Below, one piece after another: positions 56,416 to 64,000 of a stretch of 64,000 bases of DNA; within the stretch, counting starts at the first letter, position 1; every line of letters starts with the position of its first letter. The translations under genes were made by a program, and so were the position numbers. The stretch comes from Promethearchaeati archaeon SRVP18_Atabeyarchaeia-1. GTDB taxonomy: Archaea; Asgardarchaeota; Atabeyarchaeia; Atabeyarchaeales; Atabeyarchaeaceae. The DNA lies in the NCBI GenBank assembly GCA_037308085.1, contig CP147779.1, forward strand, positions 1,920,001 to 1,984,000. Reading direction: 5' to 3'. The notes under the pieces are model-generated. The model was given only the letters and a program-made list of their open reading frames with translations, made no database searches and had not been told where the DNA came from.

Positions 56416-59202
56416 ATGACTAATGATGGAACTGTTTCGAAGAGGTTGTCATCATATGATTTCTCGAATGTGACCAGCAGTATTCTCAATCTTCCCCCTG
56501 TTCTGTCTGAAGACCAGGGAGAAGCCGCGCTGTCGAAGTCCAGATACACTAGAGTAATCGCGGGCGCAGGGGCTGGAAAAACAGAAACGTTGGCTAGACG
56601 GATAGCCTGCCTACTCTTGGTAGAAGGAGTCGAACCGAGACGCGTCGTTGCCTTCACTTTCACCGAGAAAGCCGCCCGGAGCATGAAAAGTCGAATCTAT
56701 CACACGGTGGAGAAACTCGCTGGGTCCGGGGCCACTGCAAATCTCGGCGAAATGTATATTGGAACGATCCACGGGTATGCCAAACGAATACTAGAAGATC
56801 ACTTCGGATATGGTAACTATGGCGTTCTGGACGAGGGCAAAGAAGTTGCATTCCTCATGAGGCATGGATGGAACATACATTCACACCTATACGCAGGTAA
56901 CTATGCGGAGAGTTGTCGGATTTTCCTGCGAACGGTAAACATGGTCTGGGACGAGATGCTTGACGAAGGGCAAGTTGAGCAAAGAGCGCCGCCTTTCTTC
57001 AGGAGGATGAAGCGCTATGAGGATCTACTCAAGGTCCACAGACAGCTCACTTTTGGCAGAATGATCCATGAAGCGGTATTGAACCTGAGAAGCAACCCAG
57101 ACAAACTTGGACATGTTAGGCATGTCATCATAGACGAATACCAAGACATAAACAGAGCCCAATGGGAACTCATAAACCTGGTAGGTCAAAACAGTTCAGT
57201 ATTCATTGTGGGAGACCCAAGGCAGAGCATCTATCAGTGGAGAGGATCTGATGAGGAGTTCTTTGAGAAATTCGCTAAGGATTTCCCAAAGGTGAAAACC
57301 GTAACTCTCACGGAAAATCGAAGGAGCGCCAAGAGAATCGTGAGGAACGCCAATTGCTTTGCAGATAGTTTTGAGAAAAGAGCATATGAACATATGGAGC
57401 CAACAAGAAAGGATGACGGGTTCATCGGATTAGCGAGCCTTGAGACCCCTGACGACGAGGCGAAATGGATTGCAGACCAGATAGAGGACTTGATAAAGAA
57501 AAAAAGCCTGAAGTTCTCAGACATAGGTGTTCTGACGAGAAGCGTCAGCACCTCAGCAGGGCCGCTTATTCACGAACTAAAGAAGCGGAAAGTGCCCTAC
57601 ATCGTGGGGGGCAAGGTCGGTCTCTTCAAAAGAGATGAAGCACGCGCGCTTGGGATGATTTTCTCTTGGTTCTGGGAGGACGGGTTTTGGACTGACGATC
57701 CATACAGAAGAGATGAGAGCATATCTGGAAATGCGCTTTTGAGTGCAGCGCTGAAGTGCTGGGATTCCGCGCATCAGCATGGACACCCCACCAGCGCAGA
57801 AATCAAGTTGAGACGAATCAAAGGAGATCTGAACTCTGAGAAGTCCTTCTACCGAAACTTCACCAAGATCTACTATGACATCCTCAACGCGCTTGGATAT
57901 GAAAAGTTGGATTACGCGAACACAAATGATGCAACCGTCATGGCAAATCTTGGTCGATTTAACGTTCTACTGACAGACTATGAATTCGCAAATCGGATCG
58001 GGGGAAGAAGACCTGAATGGGCTCACGACCTGAAAGGGCTATTCTGGTTCATCAACAGCTACGCTCTACTCGCTTATGAGGAACAGCCTTCGGATGACAT
58101 ACGGGGAGTGGATGCAGTCCAAATCATGACTATTCACCAAGCGAAAGGTCTTGAGTGGCCGATAGTCTTCTTGTTTGCGAACGTAACGAGGAGATTCCCA
58201 CCCAGCCGCATGGGAAGACCTCAGGAGTGGTGTGACGTACCGAGAGAAATGTTTGATGCGAAGAGGTATGAGGGCGGTCTCGAAGATGAAAGAAGGCTCT
58301 TTTACGTTGCAGTAACGAGATCAAAAGATGCCCTAGTAATCAGCCACTTCAGGAGAATAAGCAACAACATAAGCAGAAGCATGCTCATCGACAGTCTCGA
58401 CAAGGACGCCCTGACGGAACTAAGTGACAAACAGAGACTCCCTGAACTTGCCATTCACGCAAATTCACAGCCAGACGAAATCCAGACTTTCACCGCTGAA
58501 GAGGTCATCACTTTCAGCATATGCCCGCACATGTACCTCTTAAGAGATATCTGGGGATACCAACCAGAACTCAGGCAGGCAATAGGATTCGGTAATGGTC
58601 TCCATTATTGCCTCCGAAGAGCAGGCGAACTTATCAAGAACGAAGGCTACAGCCCAATAGAAGCAGCTGAAAAAGCAGTCAAGGAAGACTTTCATATGCC
58701 TTTCGTCGGAGGCGAAGTACTCGAAAACTTTAGAAAAAGCGCGGGAAAGATGCTCCGCAGATTCGCAGAGAAATACGGCGACGATCTCAAGCGGATCGAG
58801 GAAGTAGAATACAGAATCGAGTATCCAATAAAGAGCCCTACAAATGCAGCGACGATTATGGGCAAGGTGGATGTGATTCTGAGAGATGGGGGTTCCATGG
58901 AGGTTAGAGACTACAAGACCTCCGCGAAAGTTAGGACATCCGAAGAGATCTCTACTCAGGTCACCTTATACGCCGCTGGTCTCAAGAGCGTGGGCAGACC
59001 TGTAACAAGCGGATCTGTTGCCTACCTAAAGGAAGGAGACGTGAAGACGGTTGATGTTAGCGACCCTGCCCTAAGTAACGCAAAGGGGGAGGCTGGCAGG
59101 ACCATTGAGAGCATCATGAAGCGGCAATTCGCGCCTGCTCCCGGAAAGAACTGCAGTCGATGCGATCAAGCCCCAATATGCAGATGGCGGTCTAGTCACT
59201 AA
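56416..59202 (+). CDS. UvrD/PcrA-family SF1 helicase fused to a C-terminal PD-(D/E)XK nuclease with a 4-Cys (Fe-S) motif
   Basis: AGAGAGKT, DEYQD, GDPRQSIYQWRG, TIHQAKGLEW, ERRLFYVAVTR; ICPH...GKVD...DYKT...CSRC-x5-C. Confidence 0.92.
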   Translation: MTNDGTVSKRLSSYDFSNVTSSILNLPPVLSEDQGEAALSKSRYTRVIAGAGAGKTETLARRIACLLLVEGVEPRRVVAFTFTEKAARSMKSRIYHTVEKLAGSGATANLGEMYIGTIHGYAKRILEDHFGYGNYGVLDEGKEVAFLMRHGWNIHSHLYAGNYAESCRIFLRTVNMVWDEMLDEGQVEQRAPPFFRRMKRYEDLLKVHRQLTFGRMIHEAVLNLRSNPDKLGHVRHVIIDEYQDINRAQWELINLVGQNSSVFIVGDPRQSIYQWRGSDEEFFEKFAKDFPKVKTVTLTENRRSAKRIVRNANCFADSFEKRAYEHMEPTRKDDGFIGLASLETPDDEAKWIADQIEDLIKKKSLKFSDIGVLTRSVSTSAGPLIHELKKRKVPYIVGGKVGLFKRDEARALGMIFSWFWEDGFWTDDPYRRDESISGNALLSAALKCWDSAHQHGHPTSAEIKLRRIKGDLNSEKSFYRNFTKIYYDILNALGYEKLDYANTNDATVMANLGRFNVLLTDYEFANRIGGRRPEWAHDLKGLFWFINSYALLAYEEQPSDDIRGVDAVQIMTIHQAKGLEWPIVFLFANVTRRFPPSRMGRPQEWCDVPREMFDAKRYEGGLEDERRLFYVAVTRSKDALVISHFRRISNNISRSMLIDSLDKDALTELSDKQRLPELAIHANSQPDEIQTFTAEEVITFSICPHMYLLRDIWGYQPELRQAIGFGNGLHYCLRRAGELIKNEGYSPIEAAEKAVKEDFHMPFVGGEVLENFRKSAGKMLRRFAEKYGDDLKRIEEVEYRIEYPIKSPTNAATIMGKVDVILRDGGSMEVRDYKTSAKVRTSEEISTQVTLYAAGLKSVGRPVTSGSVAYLKEGDVKTVDVSDPALSNAKGEAGRTIESIMKRQFAPAPGKNCSRCDQAPICRWRSSH

Positions 59203-59266
59203 GCAAAGAACGAGGCAGTTGTAGTCGAAGTCGAGAGTTCAACCAAAAAGACCAGAGAGTGGAGAT

Positions 59267-59659
59267 ATGACTGAGTCAGCGATTGAGAGGCTAAGACTGG
59301 ACATTATTTCAGCGCTTGGTGGGTGCTGTGTCAAGTGTGGCTTTCATGATCCAAGAGCACTCCAAATCGATCACATTAATGGTGGCGGCAGAAGAGAATA
59401 CTTACGCTTCGGGGGCAGTTCACACAGATACTTGAAGCACATAAGAGATCAGATTGAAAAAGGTTCCAAGAAATATCAGATCTTATGCGCCAACGACAAT
59501 ATGATCAAGCGAGAAGTGAACAAAAAATGTGAAGGCGCGGGTCGTAGAGCTTCAGCAACTCGCAAGCGCAATCTCGAGAGGCACAGAGATGCAGGTCTAA
59601 AAGCGGCAGACACAAGAATACGCAACCTGGAGAGAACTGGAGAACAAAATGAGGCATAG
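59267..59659 (+). CDS. Small HNH-like protein with a basic repeated C-terminal tail
   Basis: CVKC...LQIDHING...QILCANDN; AGRRASATRKRNLER / AGLKAADTRIRNLER. Confidence 0.75.
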   Translation: MTESAIERLRLDIISALGGCCVKCGFHDPRALQIDHINGGGRREYLRFGGSSHRYLKHIRDQIEKGSKKYQILCANDNMIKREVNKKCEGAGRRASATRKRNLERHRDAGLKAADTRIRNLERTGEQNEA

Positions 59660-59867: not shown

Positions 59868-60770
59868 CTATCTGGGCTTGCGGATATTCTTCACCTTGTC
59901 TTGAAGCCCAGCTCTCAAATGCTTTGCGTCATCCCTAAGAATCGTCTCGAAGTTTGCTTTGTCTCCGAAGAGTGAGGATTGATCAATATTCAGTTTTTTC
60001 TTAACTACGTCCAGAAGTTCCAGGTCAATCTCGTATCCTACGCATCTTCTGCCCAGTTCGAGGGCCACCTTCAAGGTCGTTCCCGAGCCCATAAAGGGGT
60101 CCAAAACAACCTCGTTCTTGTAGGAGAAGAGTTTGATTAACCTACGCGGGATCTCGTCTGGGTAAGCTGCTATCCCCTTCTCCAATCGGTTGCTGATGGG
60201 GAGCACATTCGTGATATTCCAGACGCTCAGATACCACTTGCCTTTCTGATAGGCCTCGAGATCGATCTTCGATTCCTCCTTGGCCTCGCTTGGGATCTTA
60301 TCGTAGTCGAAGTCTCCATTCTGGAAGATAAGAATCGACTCTTGGAGGTTGTCCGGGTAGTAATACATGGGATAAGGATGCTGCAGCAAGACCCCGCTTC
60401 TTCTGCTTATCCTGATATAGCCTTCAGGCTTAACCCAAGTAATCCTGTCTCTATACTTAAATCCCTCTTCGACGAATATCTTTGTTATGTCCGCAACCAC
60501 GGGGAACTTCTTGCCATCTATCAACGTATCGTCAACAACGAAAGCACCAATTCTCCCCTCAGCAAGCACCCTCTCAAGTTCCTCGGCCATTTTGCGGATA
60601 ATGCCCAGAAACTCGTCGTAGCTCTTGAAGAGGTCGGGGTAGTCAAAGGGAGCATTGAAGTAAGGCGGAGAAGTGACAACTAGATGTACGCTCTTGTCTT
60701 CTAGTTCCTGCATGTTTTGGCAGTCGCCAAAGACTATCTTGTTTATCCATTTGCCAGCCATTCCAGACAT
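59868..60770 (-). CDS. Beta-class N4-cytosine/N6-adenine DNA methyltransferase
   Basis: VTSPPY precedes VLDPFMGSGTT; GYEID. Confidence 0.92.
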   Translation of the reverse strand: MSGMAGKWINKIVFGDCQNMQELEDKSVHLVVTSPPYFNAPFDYPDLFKSYDEFLGIIRKMAEELERVLAEGRIGAFVVDDTLIDGKKFPVVADITKIFVEEGFKYRDRITWVKPEGYIRISRRSGVLLQHPYPMYYYPDNLQESILIFQNGDFDYDKIPSEAKEESKIDLEAYQKGKWYLSVWNITNVLPISNRLEKGIAAYPDEIPRRLIKLFSYKNEVVLDPFMGSGTTLKVALELGRRCVGYEIDLELLDVVKKKLNIDQSSLFGDKANFETILRDDAKHLRAGLQDKVKNIRKPR

Positions 60771-60934
60771 TCTCTCCTCTCAGCTAACCGTCATGGTGAT
60801 GGACATTACATTGTGATTATTAGCTTTGTAGGCTTTTAACTTTCCATCTAGGGCCGTCTGGCGTCAAAATCGCGTAATCATGCAGGAAAAATACTGCATC
60901 TGTCTGGGCAGCAGGTCCGCGAAGGTCCGAATCG

Positions 60935-61870
60935 CTATGGCGTCGAGTAGACTTCTACGACGGCGCGACCGACCGTAGTGAAGGTTCTGGCCGGAACCAC
61001 AAAATAGTTCTCGTACCTGTCATCCACTAGTACTATTCCTTTCGCCTTGCTCGGTTTCCCGCGGAGGCTGGTGGTCATCTTTTCTTGGGCGATCTTCAAC
61101 GCAATCTGTGGTCTTCGCACTTCGAACCCTTGTTGAGCAGTTGTATGGATGAAGCCAAGCTTCAGGATTGGGTTCATCTTCTCAAGATACGGAGGCTGAT
61201 TCCTGAACATAAGAGATGGAATCGTACCGGCAACACCGTTTGACAGCAGGAAGTCCCGTGCATAGACGAATTCCCCTATACTGAATTTGTACGAGTTAAT
61301 GGGAACCCTGACGTAGAACATCTGCTCTCTCTGTGCCTGCTTTGACTCACTCAGGAAGGGGATGCCTTCGAAGTCCTTTTCTGGCAGAGAAAGGACATTC
61401 CCCAATCGGGAAAGCAAATCTCTGCAGTCGCCTATGGCAAAGACAGGAATGCACCAGTTTGAGTAGAGCCTGCCAAATGCAGCCATTGTCGAATACTCAA
61501 GATGATATTGCTCCTGACCATCGACTTGAGGGCAAATCCGGAACTCGAGACTGTCATCATCTATCAAAGAAACCTTCACACGAGGCTTCTCTGATACTAT
61601 TATAGGTTCCGTCTCTCTATCAGTGGCCTGCCATCCGAGCGCTTCAACCGTCTTTCCAAAGTAGCGGGGGCTGATCACATACTTCCTTCTTCTCTCCTGT
61701 TCTCTGGTAGTGCTCTCGCAGTTATCGGAATAGATTATCGGCATTGTTTTCCTTTCAAAGCCACCCTTTCCGAAGCCCATTTCCTTGAGATGAGTATAAA
61801 GATCATCATCCCAAGCGAAGTATATCTGAAGCGTGTCCAAAACATAGGAACCGATATGAACTGAAGCCAT
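60935..61870 (-). CDS. Uncharacterised 311-aa protein
   Basis: Long clean ORF with GGAGG RBS; no motif recognised. Confidence 0.75.
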   Translation of the reverse strand: MASVHIGSYVLDTLQIYFAWDDDLYTHLKEMGFGKGGFERKTMPIIYSDNCESTTREQERRRKYVISPRYFGKTVEALGWQATDRETEPIIVSEKPRVKVSLIDDDSLEFRICPQVDGQEQYHLEYSTMAAFGRLYSNWCIPVFAIGDCRDLLSRLGNVLSLPEKDFEGIPFLSESKQAQREQMFYVRVPINSYKFSIGEFVYARDFLLSNGVAGTIPSLMFRNQPPYLEKMNPILKLGFIHTTAQQGFEVRRPQIALKIAQEKMTTSLRGKPSKAKGIVLVDDRYENYFVVPARTFTTVGRAVVEVYSTP

Positions 61871-62086
61871 CAACCATCATCCTCCGATCCTGGACTCCGC
61901 CAGACAATGAAGGAGATAAAAGCTATAGTTCTTTCGCATGCGCCTGCGTCCCTGAATTATCCGAACTCAGTGACCCAGAATAAGGCATGAGGACCTCTTT
62001 CTAAGCTCTCGCAGATTTGGGAATATCGCAAATACCCCGCAAAGTATAAAATCGGCAACATGCATCTAGTGGCTGGGGACACGACC

Positions 62087-63121
62087 ATGGTTGGGGAGAT
62101 TGGAGATCTAAACCGACTTGTACTGCATCCTTCTTTCAACGAGACTATCGATGAGATAAATAAGCTTGGCATCTGCATACCGAGTCATCCGATCGCGGAA
62201 GAGATGGATTTTAACTCATACCTATTTCCTCCCCAAAACGGCAAGCTAGTCACGAATATTGAAGAGCCAAGAAGCTTCGACCTGGACGCAGGAGGAGGAC
62301 AGGATCTGCTGAAGGAAGGGATTCCGATCTGTGCATATGATGAGTCAATGAGTAAGTTCTCCAGCTTGGAGGGAACCGCTTTTGTTGTGTCTCATTCACT
62401 GGTGATCCACCGGAAAGATGACTACGTCCCATCTTGCTACCTTACGCTCAACTTCTATACTCGCTCAAAGACCTTTACGGAGAACTCAAAACTTCTAAAA
62501 TACTCTGACAATCCGGAGCAGAGCTCTAAACTCGACTATGTTAGAGACAGAACAGAATTGCTGCTAAGAAGTGCGCCAAGCAATTCGATAGTGTTTATCG
62601 ATGGCGTCCTAATCGGGGGACAGCTTAGCAGTTACACCATCAGAATGAACGAGGAGCTGCTCAGAAGGAACATAATTCCTATCTTCTTCGTAAAGAACAG
62701 TGCAAGCAATCTGGTCACCGATCACATTGATGGACTTGTGGGAAGATACAATTCTGATATGCACTGGGCATATACGTCGCTGAAGCCTGGGCAGAGGACA
62801 AGCTTCTTCCAGTACCAGGATGCGAGGAATACTGCCAATGCAAAGCTATTCTGTTATCTCAAGGCTTTCGAGATTAGTCCGCAGAGAGTCGAGTTCCACG
62901 TAAGTACCTTTAAGAAGTATGGAAAAAAGATGAGTGCTCTCATGGACCTGGCATACTATCTCATGCTTGTTCAGGGTGACCTATCCAATCCGCAAATAAG
63001 GCCAATTGCGGTTGCGGAGAAGTATGCTAGGGAAACCCTGAGGTTAGTCGACCTTGACAAACTAATGAGGAGACTGGGAATAACATCTACCGTAAATCAA
63101 GAAAGGTTTGGATGGAGTTAA
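62087..63121 (+). CDS. nurA: NurA-family nuclease (RNase H/PIWI-like fold)
   Basis: ICAYDES, VFIDGVL, FFVKNS, RPIAVAEKYA; immediately upstream of the HerA gene. Confidence 0.75.
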   Translation: MVGEIGDLNRLVLHPSFNETIDEINKLGICIPSHPIAEEMDFNSYLFPPQNGKLVTNIEEPRSFDLDAGGGQDLLKEGIPICAYDESMSKFSSLEGTAFVVSHSLVIHRKDDYVPSCYLTLNFYTRSKTFTENSKLLKYSDNPEQSSKLDYVRDRTELLLRSAPSNSIVFIDGVLIGGQLSSYTIRMNEELLRRNIIPIFFVKNSASNLVTDHIDGLVGRYNSDMHWAYTSLKPGQRTSFFQYQDARNTANAKLFCYLKAFEISPQRVEFHVSTFKKYGKKMSALMDLAYYLMLVQGDLSNPQIRPIAVAEKYARETLRLVDLDKLMRRLGITSTVNQERFGWS

Positions 63122-63123
63122 GA

Positions 63124-64000
63124 ATGTCATGGATTGTAATAACTGAAGACAAAGGCAAGATTATGCTTGTCTCCAAGAGCAATCAGGATGACGCGGTCAA
63201 GGGGATACTGCACAGGGGATCATATCTAACCGTTGAAGATGGAGAAAAGAAATTCATCCTGAGGGTTGAGGACAGTTCTCAATTCAACCCATACTCGCCT
63301 TCCCCCATGGTAGTTGACATGGATCTGTCCCCACTCCTGCAAGATCAGAAATGTCAAAATGTAGTCTATGCGACCAAGATAGTAGAACATCCAGATCGTG
63401 ACGACGGAAGAAGCAGTTTCATAAGGCCGCAATTGCTGGCAAGAGTATCCAATCAGTCCGAAATCGACGCCGCCTTCGGTAACAATGAAGGAATTCCTGT
63501 CTTCCCAGCGACGACATTGGCAAGAAGCTGCAAACATCTGCGCGACGACAAAGGTAAACTCGTTCAAGTGAAGATACCGGAGGACGTGTTCTTCTACCAG
63601 ATGCTAGTGACAGGGAGTACGGGCTCAGGCAAGACAGTTGCAATGAAATACATGGCACAGTACTTTGTGGAAGAACTGAAACTGAACGGACGCGGGCCCG
63701 GAGCAGTACTTGCAGTGAACGTGAAAGAAGAGGACATGCTAACCATGGATAGGCCCAGTGAGTCTGGTAGCTCAGAAGTTATGAACGAATGGTCCGATCT
63801 TCATGTCAGTCCCCACGGAGTTGAGACTTTTAGAACCTATTATCCTGGCAACTTGACTCCGCGATACTCGAAGGCAGTTGACCTCGGTAAGTGTGAGAAG
63901 ATAACTCTTGAGACAGATCACATTGATCCCGAAACTCTTACCGGATTGATACAGAACATTACTGAATTGGGTGCCGATCAGCTACCCGCGATCTTTAGAT
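63124..64000 (+). CDS. herA: HerA/DUF87-family ATPase, 3'-truncated by the window
   Basis: Manual translation MSWIVITEDKGK...; N-terminal HAS-barrel-like region and MLVTGSTGSGKT Walker A; frame open to the window end. Confidence 0.8.
   Translation, partial: MSWIVITEDKGKIMLVSKSNQDDAVKGILHRGSYLTVEDGEKKFILRVEDSSQFNPYSPSPMVVDMDLSPLLQDQKCQNVVYATKIVEHPDRDDGRSSFIRPQLLARVSNQSEIDAAFGNNEGIPVFPATTLARSCKHLRDDKGKLVQVKIPEDVFFYQMLVTGSTGSGKTVAMKYMAQYFVEELKLNGRGPGAVLAVNVKEEDMLTMDRPSESGSSEVMNEWSDLHVSPHGVETFRTYYPGNLTPRYSKAVDLGKCEKITLETDHIDPETLTGLIQNITELGADQLPAIFR

Follow-up and report, generated by a model that had tools for sequence, protein, structure and literature searches.

A putative restriction-modification pair beside a five-gene NurA-HerA operon in an Asgard archaeon: a candidate methylation-keyed anti-invader island

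The 64,000-nucleotide stretch of DNA analysed here, referred to as the window, covers positions 1,920,001 to 1,984,000 of contig CP147779.1 (C1:1920001-1984000; assembly GCA_037308085.1), the one contig, of 2.81 Mb, that makes up the genome of Promethearchaeati archaeon SRVP18_Atabeyarchaeia-1. At its right end, a DNA methyltransferase (MTase) gene and a gene for a 311-aa protein lie on the minus strand, back to back with nurA and herA genes on the plus strand. We found that these four genes belong to two modules, namely a gene pair that reads as a Type II-like restriction-modification (R-M) system (Module A) and the head of a five-gene operon that runs past the window end (Module B, or the cassette). 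We consider it fairly probable that the low-GC island holding both modules is a methylation-keyed anti-invader island. An earlier note on this DNA had described the four genes, their strands and a divergent spacer of ~215 bp with TATA-like boxes, all of which were confirmed by the listing of open reading frames (ORFs) and by sequence reading; it had also taken the four genes for one defence system. The features of the two modules are listed below, positions beyond 64000 being window coordinates obtained by adding 56000 to the position in the downstream genome stretch (L002).

59868..60770, minus strand: beta-class DNA methyltransferase (N6_N4 family), 300 aa; Pfam PF01555, E 1e-42; PADLOC MTase_II PDLC03353, E 5.7e-74
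60935..61870, minus strand: 311-aa protein, probable restriction endonuclease; 311 aa from the ATG at 61870, 312 aa from a TTG (60935-61873)
61871..62086, no strand: divergent promoter region of ~215 bp that separates the R-M pair from the NurA operon (sequence reading)
62087..63121, plus strand: NurA-family nuclease, 344 aa, first cassette gene (Pfam NurA)
63112..64686 (window part to 64000), plus strand: HerA-family hexameric ATPase/translocase, 524 aa; Pfam HerA_C, E 2.9e-7, and AAA-type matches
64664-64792, beyond the window end: acidic micro-ORF, 42 aa (15 D/E, 8 K/R), ending in TAG and overlapping the herA stop
64793-66856, beyond the window end: hook-less Rad50/SMC-like coiled-coil ABC ATPase, 687 open codons
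66857-67762, beyond the window end: double winged-helix protein, 301 aa, abutting the ATPase gene

The methyltransferase and the 311-aa protein

The translation of the window MTase contains an intact motif IV (SPPY, residues 34-37) and an intact motif I (FMGSGTT within DPFMGSGTT, near residue 225). Its neighbour, the 311-aa protein, belongs to a family of more than 167 unnamed homologues, the closest of which share 61-68% identity, with the invariant motifs WDDD, DN, EKP, YHxEY and QRE. When one genome per species was scanned (185,579 species genomes), 12 loci of this family were found. An orthologue of the window MTase (58-63% identity) immediately adjoined the 311-aa homologue, in tandem or divergent orientation, at 10 of them, and the remaining two loci were cut by contig ends; overall, an MTase orthologue (58-64% identity) adjoined every 311-aa homologue that had room for one. 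The pair is hosted by Bathyarchaeota, Nitrososphaerales, Methanomethylicia and one Dormibacterota bacterium, and the closest readable locus, on a viral contig (L118), carries the pair alone, with identities of 66% and 64%. Among the 10 genome loci and L118, NurA-HerA accompanied the pair in one only, which does not sustain the earlier view of the four genes as one unit: Module A occurs sporadically and independently. At two loci (L009 and L013) the 311-aa gene is interrupted by a stop or frameshift beside an intact MTase gene, which is the usual decay route of restriction systems. On this comparative evidence, we regard the MTase and the 311-aa gene as a self-contained Type II-like R-M pair that is independent of NurA-HerA.

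The 311-aa protein had no Pfam match, and it matched the PADLOC model REase_II (PDLC03542) over residues 6-210 (E 9.5e-9, 33 bits). Because of this match, we read it as the nuclease of the pair rather than as a specificity factor of HerA-NurA; of the two roles previously suggested for it in a HerA-NurA system, specificity factor or novel nuclease, the second is retained as probable, with the R-M pair as the system it would serve. Structure prediction with AlphaFold2, followed by Foldseek, had been proposed for this protein in the earlier note, and gave a confident, beta-rich model (pLDDT 91.8, pTM 0.91) for which nothing among solved structures was found at E <= 0.001. Among the weak structural matches, the only restriction enzymes were PabI and CcoLI. 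Sequence and profile searches of the PDB revealed no relative, the ESM Atlas offered no useful neighbour, longer or fused forms of the family were looked for and none was found, and a plasmid search gave no match for either the 311-aa protein or the window NurA. In our reading, the 311-aa protein is probably the endonuclease of the R-M pair, with an unusual fold that has no clear solved relative. An internal duplication, hinted at by the order of secondary structures in the model, was also considered and rejected, as the two halves did not align (hhalign probability 0.1%).

The NurA-HerA operon and its relatives

The start of the window NurA at ATG 62087 (344 aa) agrees with the orthologues; an alternative ATG at 62060 would give 353 aa. 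The protein matched Pfam NurA with an E of 8.9e-7 (29 bits; the cut-off is 21) and keeps the acidic and His columns that are invariant in its family, and the family profile found no match among PDB sequences. The herA start overlaps the nurA stop by 10 nt. HerA carries a Walker A motif (GSTGSGKT) and a Walker B motif (LIIIDEVHE), keeps the invariant residues of its family, and has Sulfolobus HerA (4d2i, E 1.2e-6) as its closest solved chain. The earlier note had seen no mre11 or rad50 gene, and our reading downstream of herA bears this out: the operon contains no Mre11 (metallophosphatase) and no hook-bearing Rad50, and continues instead with the micro-ORF and the genes for the hook-less ATPase and the winged-helix protein. 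The Rad50/SMC-like ATPase shows a Walker A motif (GRNDQGKST), a GTGH signature-like motif and a Walker B motif (ILLFDE) but no CxxC, and thus has no zinc hook; its profile matches were weak (Rad50 of NCBIfam at E 6.7e-5; in orthologues AAA_23/AAA_27, and LmuB at E 9e-8). For the winged-helix protein (AlphaFold2 pLDDT 77.6), matches to MukF/JetA/LmuC and to ORC/MarR winged-helix proteins were all weak. Since the frames overlap or abut, the five genes constitute a tight operon, whose core genes stand in the order shared with related cassettes. The unit is therefore larger than the NurA-HerA pair, which had been proposed as the restriction arm. The 301-aa gene is followed by a small membrane-protein gene and then by the first of several dif-like repeats.

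Homologues of the window NurA numbered 596 (50-66% identity, the best at 66%) and came from Methanoperedens, Nanoarchaeia, Thaumarchaeota, Hodarchaeota, Heimdallarchaeota, Methanococcoides, Thermoplasmata, Nitrososphaeria, Methanomethylicia and other Asgard archaea. We compared 80 metagenome loci, 77 of them non-redundant; the resulting counts come from short metagenome contigs, and related loci are not independent. Clustering of all ORFs at the 77 loci yielded exactly five recurrent families in a fixed order, comprising NurA (77 loci), HerA (72), the ATPase (51), the 301-aa winged-helix protein (41) and a fifth family (26). A HerA gene followed NurA in 74 of the 77 loci. The HerA and ATPase genes have a conserved acidic micro-ORF (27-58 aa) between them, a similar ORF being present in 27 of 42 loci. 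The fifth family proved to consist of adenine methyltransferases of the D12 class and Dam family (PF02086, E 4.5e-40; TIGR00571), with DPPY intact in every copy and the gene located after the operon in 20 loci and directly before NurA in 6. Where downstream sequence was visible, the next gene encoded an MTase in 22 of 29 loci; where both flanks were visible, an MTase stood on one of the two sides in 13 of 18, and at a fourteenth an Eco57I/MmeI-like enzyme of Type IIG was encoded at a distance of 1.7 kb. The ORF clustering revealed no other gene conserved up- or downstream of the cassette, and the outer neighbours of the D12 MTase were unrelated genes with no restriction endonuclease among them. 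Other neighbours of the cassette included a PLD-helicase, DUF2779/Cas4-like, NERD-UvrD, HNH, SbcCD and a CARF-wHTH protein. Module B is a mobile operon that in most other genomes is accompanied by a lone Dam-family methylase, apparently active, and by no restriction enzyme of a classical kind. The earlier idea of a system that tells self from non-self by methylation thus survives in part, in that relatives of the cassette are strongly linked to MTases (13 of the 18 loci); it is not supported as a single four-gene system, the MTase/311-aa pair being a separate unit.

One metagenome contig, JGI1356J14229_10000009 (406,522 bp), contained four identical 21-kb cassette stretches (L016, L017, L018 and L051) spaced 108,817 bp apart, and looks like a four-fold concatemer of a ~109-kb circular replicon carrying the cassette. 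This copy has two winged-helix paralogues and no adjoining methylase.

The window copy departs from the common pattern in two respects. Neither a D12 MTase nor a remnant of one was found near the window cassette, and the cassette of Candidatus Methanosuratincola petrocarbonis (L010) likewise has no Dam-family MTase at the operon end; the sole D12 gene of the host genome lies 1.38 Mb away and is 28% identical. In addition, the ATPase gene has no ATG, GTG or TTG where the orthologues start (MI[EK]YDY). The sequence there (window 64790-64925, L002 8790-8925) reads TAG ACG TTT CAG ATC AAG TAC, in which TAG is the in-frame stop of the micro-ORF; the first canonical ATG follows at 64922, with Walker A 30 codons upstream of it. 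This might be explained by read-through, by re-initiation at a codon that is not canonical, or by a start codon lost recently. As a separate observation, the sole D12 MTase of the genome lies ~7 kb from a HerA/DUF87 open frame of 1254 codons (C1:600255-601028 and 608235-608972), and the two may represent another methylase-plus-HerA arrangement.

NurA is encoded at three loci of the genome. The one that scores best (73 bits) lies, next to a gene for a HerA of the HAS-barrel/DUF87 type, at C1:778-781 kb between the genes for CTP synthase and RIO kinase. A third pair, at 2.10 Mb (C1:2102158-2105159, minus strand; L105 6158-9159), consists of a 398-aa NurA and a 629-aa HerA-like protein with two adjoining ORFs (337 and 401 aa) that have no Pfam match, and its architecture differs from that of both the canonical pair and the cassette. 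Cassette-type NurA (E <= 1e-40) was present in 3 of the 301 genomes of the host phylum, and was not found at the same threshold in the same-genus or the same-family genome. The window locus thus resembles a canonical repair operon in encoding NurA and HerA together, and differs from one in having no linked Mre11 or CxxC-hook Rad50 and in not being the housekeeping, lineage-wide or main NurA-HerA of the genome. Because of its occurrence in 3 of 301 phylum genomes and the canonical NurA-HerA elsewhere in this genome, the window NurA-HerA is a rare, horizontally spread accessory module and not the housekeeping pair, which agrees with the earlier note in setting it apart from housekeeping herA-nurA.

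Adjacency of the two modules and rival explanations

The layout of the window recurs. In L010, all seven genes are repeated in the same divergent arrangement, with a spacer of 365 bp and identities to the window proteins of 38% (NurA), 40% (HerA), 63% (MTase) and 43% (311-aa protein). A metagenome contig (L029) encodes, on one strand, a divergent full-length member of the 311-aa family (hhalign 99.25%, E 5.7e-20), an HhH-GPD protein and an MTase orthologue (61%), followed by NurA-HerA. At L086, the slot after the operon is occupied by an N6_N4 MTase and an EcoO109I-family restriction enzyme (E 1.3e-76). A fourth member of the 311-aa family, in a Hermodarchaeota genome (L014; JBHLLE010000113.1, 2165-7922), is a 63% identical homologue placed after a D12-MTase fusion protein of 678 aa, whose N-terminal 390 aa have no assignment and whose D12 part is 50% identical to the cassette-type Dam. 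This pair is divergent from genes for a DUF87 HerA-like ATPase (697 aa), a partner of 395 aa with no detectable resemblance to NurA, and a UvrD-PD-(D/E)XK protein, an arrangement that may represent another methylase-linked HerA system. In L029, the HhH-GPD protein (2205-2921), which is of the base-excision type, is encoded between the 311-aa-family gene and the MTase gene, and the otherwise invariant WDDD motif of the 311-aa family is replaced in this copy.

In total, a HerA-type module adjoins the 311-aa gene in 4 of 15 family loci (the window, L010, L029 and L014). Conserved co-occurrence of the four genes, for which the earlier note had proposed to look, was borne out at the window, L010 and L029; at L014 the neighbour is a different HerA-type pair, and no HerA-type gene lies near the other 11. 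Both modules being rare, three to four such adjacencies go beyond chance. In a quick NurA tree, L063, whose cassette has an N6_N4 MTase, and L069, which carries a D12 MTase, came out as sisters (SH-aLRT 100). Since the two MTase classes swap between sister cassettes, the methylase slot has been refilled several times. Exchange of the methylase, the linkage of Module B to methylases and its patchy distribution are observed in these loci; that Module B acts as a modification-keyed anti-invader system is what we infer from them. The adjacency of the two modules may reflect function, co-transfer or island clustering, and some coupling is plausible.

Several observations weigh against the anti-invader reading. 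No HerA-type gene lies within 8-10 kb in 11 of the 15 311-aa family loci, so the adjacency might stem from defence-island clustering or co-transfer. The window, L010 and L029 cassettes were not grouped together in the NurA tree, which is a quick tree with L010 on a very long branch. Of the 18 cassettes visible in full, five lack a neighbouring MTase, so that methylation is perhaps not obligatory. Neither a fold nor a motif of a nuclease can be recognised in the 311-aa protein, and genomic context may itself underlie its match to REase_II, which at 33 bits is modest. Finally, as the window copy has no Dam-type MTase and its ATPase has no canonical start at the orthologous position, the cassette is perhaps partly disabled.

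The strongest rival, which we judge unlikely and yet a serious contender, holds that two unrelated defence systems merely stand side by side in an island, each acting alone (or with an inert cassette) and without coupling. It would account for the 11 of 15 loci at which the R-M pair has no HerA-type neighbour, for the 74 of 77 metagenome loci at which the cassette has no 311-aa/MTase pair, for the otherwise unconserved genes upstream of the cassette, and for the lack of monophyly of the window, L010 and L029 cassettes. It fits less well with the rarity of both modules (12 loci in 185,579 species genomes, and a NurA type found in ~1% of Asgard genomes), which are nevertheless immediate neighbours in three independent cases, with a fourth family member (L014) beside another HerA-type pair. 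Moreover, where flanks are visible, the cassettes that abut an R-M pair all lack the usual Dam MTase, and a different R-M system fills the same slot in L086.

It is improbable, in our view, that the window cassette is a decaying remnant, no longer functional after the loss of its methylase and of the ATPase start codon. The absence of a D12 MTase or remnant near the cassette, with the only D12 gene 1.38 Mb away and 28% identical, and the TAG ACG TTT CAG ATC AAG at the start position of the orthologous ATPases are what such a remnant might show; its five reading frames are nevertheless intact, the ATPase frame stays open for 687 codons with Walker A, GTGH and Walker B, and NurA and HerA keep the family-invariant residues. 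We give still less credence to the idea that the cassette serves a mobile element as a spare module for DNA repair or replicon maintenance, with orphan or anti-restriction methylases and no part in immunity. Its parts are indeed homologous to archaeal end-resection machinery, and one cassette resides on an apparent ~109-kb circular replicon and another on an IMG/VR contig, but it has no conserved integrase or replication gene beside it, its flanks vary by locus, its neighbours are typical defence genes (helicase-nucleases included), the genome already possesses a canonical NurA-HerA, and Mre11 is missing. Least probable of all is one integrated four-gene system with the 311-aa protein as the dedicated specificity factor or nuclease of HerA-NurA: the divergent promoter region common to both pairs, the repeated layout in L010 and the 311-aa relatives beside HerA-type genes in L029 and L014 would agree with it, but the 311-aa gene and the MTase travel without NurA-HerA in most loci, and the conserved NurA-HerA unit has three further genes and no 311-aa gene in 74 of 77 loci.

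As to the setting, the GC content is ~0.47 across 56-68 kb, as compared with ~0.54 leftward. Synteny with a same-family genome (G012) includes a DUF3604 gene (87% identity) and breaks off at ~54.6 kb; this comparison did not fix the right edge of the island. In the spacer (61871-62086), AGTATAAAAT lies ~35 bp upstream of the NurA ATG, and a TTTTAT-type box is found on the opposite strand. To the left of Module A lies one further feature of the island:

56416..59659, plus strand: UvrD helicase-PD-(D/E)XK/Cas4-like nuclease fusion, 928 aa, then a Cys-rich 130-aa protein (Pfam)

The fusion is encoded by a stand-alone gene and has its Cys cluster at the C-terminus, and the trailing 130-aa protein has no family match; both genes are island context and fall outside the two modules. 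A homologue of the UvrD-nuclease is also encoded beside the 311-aa homologue in L014. To the right, a dif-like 23-nt site occurs in three same-direction copies (L002 12395, 14335 and 16398; window 68395 onward), the first starting 33 bp past the membrane-protein gene that trails the cassette. The cassette lies at the left edge of this dif-like array; as no copy of the site occurs anywhere in the window, the modules are not flanked by one on the left. A 49-codon fragment (C1:1995247-1995390; L002 19247-19390) is 78% identical to the N-terminus of the window MTase, ~15 kb downstream of it and directly before a TnpB-like ORF. It may be what is left of another R-M pair of this kind, or else the scar of a rearrangement.

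Relation to known systems and proposed mechanism

The archaeal HerA-NurA-Mre11-Rad50 system of Sulfolobus, Pyrococcus and Thermococcus (PMC3326311, PMC5715905) resembles the cassette in its overlapping NurA and HerA genes near a Rad50/SMC-like coiled-coil ABC ATPase. The cassette differs in having neither Mre11 nor a Zn hook and in its two extra proteins, the micro-protein and the double winged-helix one; it is also methylase-linked, rare and horizontally spread, with a canonical pair elsewhere in the genome. Module A is comparable to Type II R-M systems, including the restriction glycosylases R.PabI and R.CcoLI, in the strict pairing of MTase and 311-aa protein in varying orientation across distant taxa, in the decay of 311-aa copies beside persisting MTases, in the REase_II profile match and in the weak structural matches to PabI and CcoLI.

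Two systems serve as precedents for DNA modification combined with an ATPase-nuclease arm. MADS of Pseudomonas aeruginosa is a multi-gene operon with m6A-based self/non-self discrimination and ATPase-nuclease modules (10.1101/2023.03.30.534895, PMC13662399). The window HerA matched the mad8 model (E 6e-16), a generic match, since an unrelated DUF853 protein matched equally well; mad2 was matched weakly, by the MTase, and the mandatory MAD6 and MAD7 models were unmatched at E <= 0.01. The NurA, winged-helix protein and micro-protein of the cassette have no counterpart in MADS. The TdpABC phosphorothioate defence (An et al. 2025; its existence is confirmed in PMC12914056 and PMC13223576), compared here by report only, reportedly couples a DNA-modification gene to a restriction arm of ATPase and nuclease; it differs in relying on phosphorothioation, where methylation would be used here. 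No Tdp chain appeared in the PDB sequence searches, and none of the scanned ORFs was noticed to be of the phosphorothioation type.

Lamassu (LmuACB) and Wadjet (JetABCD) likewise combine a short SMC/Rad50-like ATPase, a small winged-helix partner and a nuclease effector. Profile matches to LmuB were weak, and MukF, JetA and LmuC headed the Foldseek list of the winged-helix protein, all below significance; the cassette differs in having HerA-NurA as its effector and an attached methylase, which Lamassu and Wadjet lack. Sir2-HerA and DUF4297-HerA (PMC11472057, PMC11291478) are similar as mobile defence modules pairing a HerA-family hexameric ATPase with an effector, but the cassette has neither a Sir2 nor a DUF4297 effector and its HerA is distantly related. 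PADLOC HerA models matched the window HerA at E 4e-7 or worse, except for the 'type III coevolved' model (8e-16). Neither this NurA, nor the winged-helix protein, nor the cassette as a system is represented by a model in PADLOC 2.0, NCBIfam 20.0 or Pfam, and no description of a NurA-HerA-SMC-methylase system was found in the literature searched. New are a form of the cassette that is docked to a restriction pair, the finding that such docking recurs, and a 311-aa family with no clear solved fold relative.

Under the anti-invader reading, the methylase would mark host DNA, and the Rad50-like ATPase, the winged-helix protein and the micro-protein would recognise DNA that is foreign, unmodified or broken. 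Such DNA would then be handed to HerA-NurA for processive degradation, an activity in line with the known HerA-NurA repair complex, which degrades DNA processively from ends (PMC3326311, PMC5715905). In the host genome, where the cassette has no methylase of its own, the neighbouring R-M pair may supply the self-mark; the 311-aa enzyme would make the first cut, and the cassette would then destroy the restricted DNA.

A bolder version, which we offer tentatively, sees in the cassette a new class of modification-dependent restriction built from parts of double-strand-break repair, with a modular slot open to a lone Dam-type methylase, to methylases of other classes or to a full Type II R-M pair. 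Combined with R-M, it might be an archaeal counterpart of RecBCD that degrades cut DNA, and the 311-aa protein might found a restriction-enzyme fold with no solved relative.

The docked variant suggests a division of labour in which the restriction enzyme cuts first and HerA-NurA finishes. To our knowledge, archaea lack RecBCD; such a division of labour could explain how they dispose of restricted DNA. The 311-aa protein, a confidently modelled and conserved methylase partner, is possibly a useful new enzyme if it cleaves DNA. Should the cassette prove to be a defence system, it would exemplify the reuse of DNA-repair machinery (HerA-NurA together with a Rad50-like ATPase) for immunity under methylation control, and, being widespread, with at least 596 NurA homologues, it would join the short list of mainly archaeal immune systems.

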